Shown here: positions 46,083-46,171 of the stretch, in pieces
Position numbering within the stretch: the first letter of the stretch is position 1
Layout of the letters: each line of letters starts with the position of its first letter
Notes under the pieces: generated by a model
The model's input: the letters and a program-made list of their open reading frames with translations, nothing else
Told to the model about the DNA's origin: nothing
Database searches by the model: none
Sequence record: PQ287652.1
Length of the DNA: 64,000 nucleotides
Strand: one strand, 5' to 3'
Source of the DNA: Pseudomonas phage HHBS12_2
Made by a program: the position numbers and the translations under genes

Positions 46083-46126
46083 TTTGTCGATTCCTTTTGG
46101 TTGAAGGGTTTCGCGTTTCGATGAGG

Positions 46127-46159
46127 GAATACTACTCTCACCTGACTCAGAAGTAAAGC
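46127..46159 (-). promoter_or_regulatory. conserved phage promoter (TTTACT-17-TAGTAT) with conserved leader
   Basis: Minus strand: AAGTGCTTTACTTCTGAGTCAGGTGAGAGTAGTATTCCCTCATCGAAACGCGAAACCCTTCAACCAAAAGGAATCGACAAAATG. Confidence 0.55.
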
Positions 46160-46171
46160 ACTTTGTGTAAA

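Follow-up and report, generated by a model that had tools for sequence, protein, structure and literature searches.

The 89-nt gap between genes gp66 and gp65 (positions 46083-46171) of Pseudomonas phage HHBS12_2 (PQ287652.1) contains, at 46083-46165, what is very probably a promoter of the host sigma-70 type that, with a 40-nt 5' untranslated leader, serves the gp65-to-gp59 operon and is one of three full copies of a repeated cassette. In the window, by which is meant the whole 64,000-nt stretch analysed, this promoter-leader cassette, specific to Pbunavirus and roughly 90 nt long, is present in three full copies (46083-46165, 2158-2229 and 62442-62515). Some eight other sigma-70 promoters have one of its modules in common with it: TTTACT as -35 box, GGCATAATCTC as -10 with discriminator, or TCCAAAACAGAGGA as ribosome-binding block. 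The shared words are enriched in the window, transcription starts have been mapped at the orthologous positions of phage 14-1, promoters of this set are active with the host polymerase only, the leaders have no RNA structure, and copies have recombined with one another. The genome in the window, which is close to complete, is that of a Pseudomonas aeruginosa myophage of the PB1-like group (Pbunavirus); its identity to 14-1, PB1 and R12 is about 93-95%. PB1-like phages are not known to have an RNA polymerase of their own. Gene names are those of 14-1 (NC_011703), with the gene set carried over by tblastn, and comparisons among cassettes use 27 unique copies from the window, 14-1, phiKTN6, misfit, KPP22, PSA25, ph0031 and four IMG/VR contigs.

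On the minus (coding) strand the gap reads TTTACACAAAGTGC-TTTACT-TCTGAGTCAGGTGAGAG-TAGTAT-TCCCTC-ATCGAAACGCGAAACCCTTCAACCAAAAGGAATCGACAAA-ATG, with the following elements.

46152-46163, minus strand: -35 region AAGTGC-TTTACT (hexamer 46152-46157), part of a composite-pattern match; CTTTACT is invariant in the 27 copies.
46129-46134, minus strand: -10 hexamer TAGTAT, 17 nt after the -35; the 14-1 orthologue is TAATAT.
46122, minus strand: predicted transcription start, at the bracketed A in CTC[A]TCG and 6 nt past the -10; placed by alignment with P028 of 14-1, whose start is at 49234(-).
46083-46122, minus strand: 40-nt 5' untranslated region with the block ATCGAAACGCGAAAC (46108-46122) and Shine-Dalgarno sequence AAAGGAA (46091-46097), ahead of the gp65 ATG (46080-46082).

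Host RNA polymerase with sigma-70 would bind TTTACT (46152-46157) and TAGTAT (46129-46134) across the 17-nt spacer and initiate at the A at 46122. The transcript would begin with AUCGAAACGCGAAAC, A-rich and unstructured, and present an AAGGAA ribosome-binding site (a moderate Shine-Dalgarno sequence) ahead of the ATG at 46082. According to the 14-1 tables, P028 heads transcription unit TU029, which runs through seven genes from gp65 to gp59 and includes ThyX, so that the leader would serve a seven-gene operon encoding the ThyX thymidylate synthase.

A first-pass annotation, made from the letters of the window, had described a recurring sigma-70-like promoter pattern upstream of many first-in-operon genes, and the pattern is real. 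CTTTACT-N16/17-NANNNT has five matches against 0.23 expected, a count reached in none of 100 shuffles, and all five (2202-2230(-), 36334-36362(-), 46129-46158(-), 49903-49932(+) and 62487-62516(-)) lie in the sense orientation directly upstream of a gene. The leader 17-mer TCATCGAAACGCGAAAC occurs twice exactly (46108-46124, 62466-62482) and once with three mismatches (2181-2197; 0.34 expected), while the 14-mer TCCAAAACAGAGGA has three exact occurrences (49955, 58460, 62450) and one with two mismatches at 61350 (0.45 expected). GGCATAATCTC is present exactly at 58512, 60355 and 62484, and with one mismatch at 37045. Motif discovery, in the form of a k-mer scan of intergenic versus total DNA run without prior input, returns CTTTACTT and ATAATCTC (each 4/4 intergenic) and GGCATAAT (5/7), and a repeat search independently returns the three long copies as one family. 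The signal resides in specific shared phage words and their placement, not in resemblance to TTGACA/TATAAT. A generic scan for the latter gives no excess over shuffles (10 vs 8.8, 7 vs 6.1 and 7 vs 5.0) and was set aside, since counts equal to those of shuffles are uninformative alone.

The family is less uniform than first described. A nhmmer profile built from the three long copies recovers those three at full length (E ~1e-23), the gp12 site in part (E 0.015) and the remaining sites marginally, and on this result the notion of at least ten copies of one unit was dropped in favour of a mosaic of shared sub-modules. Identity among the three long copies, put at about 80% over some 85 nt, is 60-65% when measured over about 93 nt and 67-76% over the 55-nt leader half. 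Likewise, a block CAGAAGTAAAGC(A/G)CTT said to be common to the three is exact solely at 46148-46163, the other two sharing just GRAGTAAAG. Members absent from the earlier list are gp16 (5879, with AAGCGCTTTACT), gp17 (6311), gp48, gp69 and a second gp70 promoter.

Primary 5' ends of 14-1 transcripts have been mapped by ONT-cappable-seq (Putzeys et al. 2024, microLife, PMC10914365), with 50 starts, 26 sigma-70-like promoters and 11 with a second motif, CTGGG. The start positions in Table S3 of the preprint (bioRxiv 10.1101/2023.10.13.562163) were each mapped to the window by local alignment. All ten sites proposed as sigma-70-type promoters, and the capsid-operon promoter, have a 14-1 start at the orthologous position. 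The proposal had been staked on starts lying 5-9 nt after the -10 boxes, and by 14-1 orthology they lie at 6-7 nt in 10 of 11 sites, the exception being gp82 (P048) at 15 nt. The capsid-operon promoter, said to obey the same -35 and spacer rule, reads TTTACC-17-TATAAT. Within cassette copies, the start falls on the bracketed A in CTC[A]TCGAAAC, so that the mRNA begins with the "conserved leader" itself. Eight of the 14 promoter regions compared are identical to 14-1 over -50..+1 (51/51), though the genomes differ at about 7% of positions. The sites other than gp65, with starts transferred from 14-1 and 51/51 denoting identity over -50..+1, are these.

2158-2229, minus strand: gp08, full cassette copy; -35 2224-2229, -10 CAGAAT 2202-2207, start 2195, leader ATTGAAATGCGAAAC 2181-2195; 14-1 P006.
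62442-62515, minus strand: gp88, full cassette copy; -35 62510-62515, -10 CATAAT 62487-62492, start 62480, leader 62466-62480, ribosome-binding block TCCAAAACAGAGGA 62450-62463; 14-1 P001/P049.
4318-4362, minus strand: gp12, partial copy; -10 TATAGT 4357-4362, start 4350, leader ATCGAAACGAAC 4339-4350; 14-1 P009.
4375-4402: intrinsic-terminator hairpin upstream of the gp12 site; 14-1 terminator T004.
5879-5915, minus strand: gp16 promoter; AAGCGC-TTTACT, 18-nt spacer, TAGACT, start 5879; 14-1 P010, 51/51.
36327-36361, minus strand: gp52 promoter; TTTACT, 16-nt spacer, TATTAT, start 36327; 14-1 P024, 51/51.
37041-37076, minus strand: gp53 promoter; GGCATAAT, -10 37048-37053, start 37041; 14-1 P025, 51/51.
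48095-48130, minus strand: gp67 promoter; -10 GATAAT 48102-48107, start 48095; 14-1 P034, 51/51.
49904-49968, plus strand: gp70 promoter and leader; TTTACT 49904-49909, GATACT 49927-49932, start 49940, TCCAAAACAGAGGA 49955-49968; 14-1 P038, 51/51.
49839 onwards, plus strand: second, upstream gp70 promoter; TTTACC 49839, TACTAT 49862, start 49874; 14-1 P037.
58460-58543, minus strand: gp77 promoter and leader; TAGACA 58538-58543, CATAAT 58515-58520, start 58507, TCCAAAACAGAGGA 58460-58473; 14-1 P043.
60315-60386, minus strand: gp82 promoter and leader; TGTACT 60381-60386, CATAAT 60358-60363, orthologous mapped 5' end 60342, CCAAAAAGGAA 60315-60325; 14-1 P048, left untyped by the 14-1 authors.
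10419-10454, plus strand: capsid-operon promoter; TTTACC, 17-nt spacer, TATAAT, start 10454; 14-1 P014, 51/51.

The -10 of the copy near 2200 had been read as AGAATA. CAGAAT (16-nt spacer) is an alternative -10, the start lying 6 nt after CAGAAT and 5 nt after AGAATA.

Four 14-1 promoters (P001, P018, P036 and P038) give significant msfGFP signal in E. coli and P. aeruginosa without phage, from fragments ending at +1 (PMC10914365; bioRxiv 10.1101/2023.10.13.562163), and P001 is called potent in both hosts (PMC10914365). Over -50..+1 the window is identical to P001, P036 and P038 (51/51) and matches P018 at 49/51. Activity without phage of sequences identical to those in the window means that host sigma-70 polymerase is sufficient, and since none of these fragments extended past +1, promoter activity does not require the leader, which is no part of promoter recognition. 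For the gp65 promoter itself, the hexamers (TTTACT-17-TAGTAT, 46129-46157, with A at position 2 and T at position 6 of the -10) are of the sigma-70 type, the primary 5' end 5-9 nt after the -10 comes from 14-1 orthology alone, and host-only activity enters via P001, P036 and P038, the 46129-46163 copy (P028) lying outside the reporter set. HHBS12_2 probably uses the 14-1 start positions, and the mapped starts can be carried over to its genome with base precision. Sigma-70-type starts also precede structural genes, and the family is therefore not confined to one temporal class. Co-regulation of a single temporal class, or an extra factor acting through the leader, as had been suggested at first, is neither supported nor excluded.

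Conservation is unevenly distributed along the cassette. Weighted pairwise identity among the 27 copies is 0.89 in the -35 block TGCTTTACT, 0.45 in the spacer, 0.73 in the -10 and 0.64 in the discriminator; within the transcribed part it is 0.81 at +1..+16, 0.48 at +17..+27, 0.81 in the Shine-Dalgarno sequence and 0.34 from there to the ATG. The first 16 transcribed bases are thus under a constraint about equal to that of known functional elements, and above that of the -10. The leaders contain 43% A and 13% T, against a genomic G+C content of about 55%. The 14-mer TCCAAAACAGAGGA stands exact before gp70, gp77 and gp88, behind three differing promoters and leaders, and is conserved past its Shine-Dalgarno core. 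We infer that selection maintains the +1..+16 block, as a context for start site and translation initiation that the copies have in common.

The conserved leader had been thought to act possibly through 5' untranslated region structure or an RNase site, and this is not supported by the RNA analyses. Single-sequence folds of the leaders are no better than shuffles (z +1.37 for the gp65 leader, which is 47% A and has no stable structure, and -0.74, +0.57 and +0.23), RNAalifold on 14 leaders gives no consensus pairs and no covariation, and Rfam has no match anywhere in the window. A structured element (riboswitch, RNA thermometer, RNase III site or attenuator) is rejected on all three counts. By inspection, +1..+16 holds no -10-like NANNNT for a sigma-70-dependent promoter-proximal pause of the lambda PR' type, which was also rejected, and no site of the integration host factor type or dyad operator was seen in the leader. 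In other Pbunaviruses a variant of the cassette has a perfect inverted repeat of 11-15 bp that runs from just past the -35 across the -10 to +5 (GATGAGGTGAC...GTCACCTCATC). It folds at -29 kcal/mol (z -5.9), has no T-run and shows one compensatory pair change between copies (GATGAGATGAC/GTCATCTCATC); the loci, outside the window, are L007 13749-13828, L014 8200-8271 and 8507-8580, and L015 1004-1388.

The blocks might alternatively have no function beyond promoter and ribosome-binding site, being copies of an ancestral cassette kept alike by recent duplication and gene conversion. Spacers do still show common ancestry (e.g. TCCATTCTGA in the gp08, gp02 and gp88 copies), there are clear recombinants between copies, and the cassette is found at 2-4 places per genome over 298 records. 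Conversion should, however, also homogenise the spacer and +17..+27, yet these are 45-48% identical as against 81% at +1..+16, and the blocks persist behind unrelated genes across the sampled Pbunavirus genomes. We consider this explanation unlikely, if one to be kept in view.

Still less probable is that ATCGAAACGCGAAAC is a DNA operator, at which a phage or host protein bound over the start site switches a subset of promoters jointly during infection. The block begins exactly at the mapped start, the classic position for a repressor, contains a tandem (T/G)CGAAAC repeat, and is as conserved as the -35 and the Shine-Dalgarno sequence, far more so than the spacer and +17..+27. In addition, 14-1 gp12 is thought to redirect host RNA polymerase via the alpha subunit (Putzeys et al.), and a partial copy of the block belongs to the gp12 gene itself. 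No protein is known to bind the block, however; the 7-nt period puts the repeats off one helix face, there is no dyad symmetry, the promoter is active without the block (the reporter fragments ending at +1), and two changes inside it are tolerated in the gp08 copy (ATTGAAAT).

Similarly improbable is an action of the block in RNA, with the 5'-terminal AUCGAAAC... and A-rich leader bound by an Hfq/Crc-type repressor, S1, or a phage translational repressor or nuclease that sets translation or decay. The composition of the leaders (43% A, 13% U) would suit this, as would their lack of structure, which is expected of targets of single-strand RNA-binding proteins, and TCCAAAACAGAGGA is conserved well past the need for 16S rRNA pairing, with three exact 14-mers behind three promoters. 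A preprint also reports 14-1 plating three-fold better on an hfq mutant, but in one sentence, without a link to these leaders. As for Hfq itself, its (A-R-N)n motif was rejected as inconsistent across copies: by inspection there is no run of at least three A-R-N triplets common to all, gp65 and gp08 having three and gp88, gp77 and gp70 two. Nor is there an Rfam family, covariation or structure to mark a specific RNA motif.

The copies also appear to serve as points of recombination. 14-1 has a copy before gp02, beside the divergent terminase promoter, and a second before gp88; gp89, gp90, gp01 and gp02 lie between the two. These four genes are absent from the window, where gp88 is joined to the terminase intergenic region via a single cassette (62437-62617). 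That copy is a chimera: its promoter half is 14-1 P001 (gp02 type, 51/51 over -50..+1), its ribosome-binding site and gene half are of gp88, and the two 14-1 alignments overlap by 66 nt inside the cassette. In PSA25, ph0031 and KPP22, two cassette copies surround one or two differing small open reading frames, and relative to PSA25 the window has exactly one 355-bp repeat unit fewer, with the crossover within 62472-62516. Across phages, gp88 is found behind three promoter halves, and one promoter half before four genes. Identity between the copies' blocks probably provides a crossover point for homologous recombination by which small early genes are gained or lost. Repeated promoter-leader units would then explain the variability of the gp88-terminase region among near-identical therapeutic phages. 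A general role of cassettes as indel boundaries was rejected, as one of seven larger indels relative to 14-1 fits.

Several points weigh against the reading of the cassette as a selected promoter-leader unit with recombining copies. The +1..+16 conservation among paralogues could stem from repeated gene conversion instead of selection, and the comparison of segments does not separate the two. The gp65 copy matches 14-1 P028 at 41/51 positions ungapped, with differences in the spacer and the -10 (TAGTAT vs TAATAT), P028 is not among the reporter-tested promoters, and for this phage's promoters all start data come from 14-1 by orthology. Time points were pooled in the 14-1 data, from which temporal class is thus not readable. 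The ratio of one cassette-bounded indel in seven makes the effect of recombination local, near the terL end, and the gp88/terL junction, which is present exactly in no phage record of the database, could be an assembly error by repeat collapse.

Both the repeat and its promoter nature are already known. In phiKTN6 (NC_041865) a 71-nt "putative phage promoter determined by MEME" is annotated upstream of gp08, gp64 (14-1 gp65), gp88 and gp89 (Danis-Wlodarczyk et al. 2015, PMC4440721), and in JG024 unexplained intergenic MEME motifs led to the suggestion of a phage sigma factor (PMC3008698). The phiKTN6 features are the same repeat in the same places as the window cassette. There the repeat was treated as phage-specific, whereas the 14-1 data add host-type recognition, host sigma-70 polymerase being enough. 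The 14-1 promoters lie at orthologous positions in a genome about 93% identical, with the same -35/-10 layout and the same A of CTC[A]TCG as start. They were, however, handled as individual sigma-70 matches, and no mention of the shared leader, the modularity or the recombination was seen in the parts of the 14-1 paper that were searched; the window also differs from 14-1 in its gp88 promoter, which joins the promoter half of P001 to the leader and gene of gp88. What goes slightly beyond published work is the +1..+16 conservation and the repeats as recombination points. Matches to the 92-nt unit by blastn are limited to 298 Pbunavirus-type records, and an exact-pattern scan of IMG/VR for the cassette gives matches only in contigs of 64-66 kb and shorter fragments.

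Two systems from other phages are comparable. Promoter early stem-loop (PeSL) cassettes of T4-type phages (Arbiol et al. 2010, PMC2839356; Comeau et al. 2014, PMC4122927) are likewise short and repeated, with a strong sigma-70-like early promoter at their core. Small variable genes lie next to them and are inserted, deleted or replaced when copies recombine. The Pbunavirus unit resembles them in having such a promoter in a repeated cassette and in its recombination indels (one clear case at 62437-62516, and mosaics in relatives). It differs in that the three full copies of the window have no terminator stem-loop (no terminator-like site, and folds equal to shuffles), in a conserved part that reaches into the transcribed leader and ribosome-binding site, in the unrelated phage group, and in having 2-4 copies per genome, with no minicircles shown. 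Without the stem-loop, membership was rejected; the cassette works like a PeSL but is no member. The start-associated sequences (SAS) of Cluster K mycobacteriophages (Pope et al. 2011, PMC3203893) resemble TCCAAAACAGAGGA in being asymmetric and repeated in one orientation, a few bases ahead of where the reading frames of non-structural genes begin. Both contain a Shine-Dalgarno core and are conserved past the rRNA pairing. They differ in sequence, host and phage group, and TCCAAAACAGAGGA has 3-4 copies tied to mapped promoters, while Cluster K SAS reportedly number 11 or more.

Near some of these promoters lies the 9-mer CCGTTCGTC, which is the published high-affinity core for AlgR (algD RB1 and RB2, algC ABS1, and the motif from chromatin immunoprecipitation sequencing; PMC4064291, PMC4787818). 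It has five exact copies in the window against 0.84 expected, at 4399-4407(+), 53053-53061(-), 54250-54258(-), 58574-58582(-) and 62545-62553(-), four of them intergenic and all followed by G. Six copies, five intergenic, are present in 14-1 in the same places as in the window, and the motif occurs in 14 of the 20 related loci examined. The k-mer scan also yields ACCGTTCGTC. Two boxes are placed as follows relative to the starts.

62545-62553, minus strand: CCGTTCGTC box at -65 to -73 of the start at 62480 and -42 to -50 of the terL start at 62595(+).
58574-58582, minus strand: CCGTTCGTC box at -67 to -75 of the start at 58507 (gp77).

Relatives have one-mismatch variants, including the algD RB3 form CCGTTTGTC, 28-30 nt upstream of the -35. 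One box lies within the terminator hairpin before gp12 and another within a hairpin after gp78, so structural roles are an alternative, and P001 is strong as a -50..+1 fragment without the box. No literature linking AlgR to Pbunaviruses was found. As candidate sites known from their sequence, the AlgR boxes of the gp88, gp77 and terminase promoters are a lead, not a result; if the lead is true, phage transcription would be responsive to the state of host AlgZR (surface-sensing, mucoidy). The wider proposition, in which the +1..+16 block AUCGAAAC(GCGAAAC) would be a DNA or RNA site for an operon-coordinating factor and the CCGTTCGTC boxes would couple early promoters to regulators, is doubtful, with both as candidate sites. 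Together they may offer leads on the early-gene timing or host-state sensing of therapy phages, e.g. on mucoid cystic-fibrosis isolates.

For a 6-kb stretch around 46083-46165 there are 297 matching phage records (90-99% identity), almost all from P. aeruginosa phages of the genus Pbunavirus (PB1, 14-1, R12, F8 and others). Almost all 14-1 genes are found in the window by tblastn, in the 14-1 order. The window starts inside gp04 and finishes at the stop codon of the large terminase, and so amounts to about the full, circularly written genome of some 64 kb. The coding strand is minus at 1-6290, plus at 6471-32654, minus at 32679-49808, plus at 49977-57669, minus at 57838-62441 and plus at 62618-64000. 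The window is without 14-1 gp13 (methyltransferase) and gp81, and about 1.5 kb of differing sequence replaces the 14-1 version of the gp71 region. The orthologues of gp59, gp74 and gp79 (43846-44036, 54063-54247 and 59426-59753) align in two frames, each with an apparent frameshift relative to 14-1. Perfect tandem repeats occur within gp78 (39 nt, at least three units, 58804-58935) and gp58 (42 nt, two units, 43205-43288), and gp67 contains a degenerate repeat with a 33-nt period (47704-47972).

Other recurrent words lie between genes. Both occurrences of the palindrome AGTTGCAACT are intergenic, one in the divergent gp17/gp18 region (6370-6379) and the other in the spacer of the gp52 promoter (36345-36354); so are all five occurrences of GTAATTTG. 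CTGGG boxes are found a few bases ahead of genes or orthologous starts (gp06, gp42 and gp80; 929-973, 25477-25531, 60028-60082, and others), and correspond to the second promoter motif described for 14-1, which is not of the sigma-70 type (Putzeys et al.) and of which two tested promoters were inactive without phage (PMC10914365). An AT-rich repeat of 100 nt, 70% identical between its copies (10212-10311 and 56544-56643), is located in the two largest non-coding regions, the 551 nt before gp22 and the 971 nt between gp75 and gp76. The copy at 56544-56643 holds the orthologue of the 14-1 P040 start (56598), and may give rise to a non-coding transcript.

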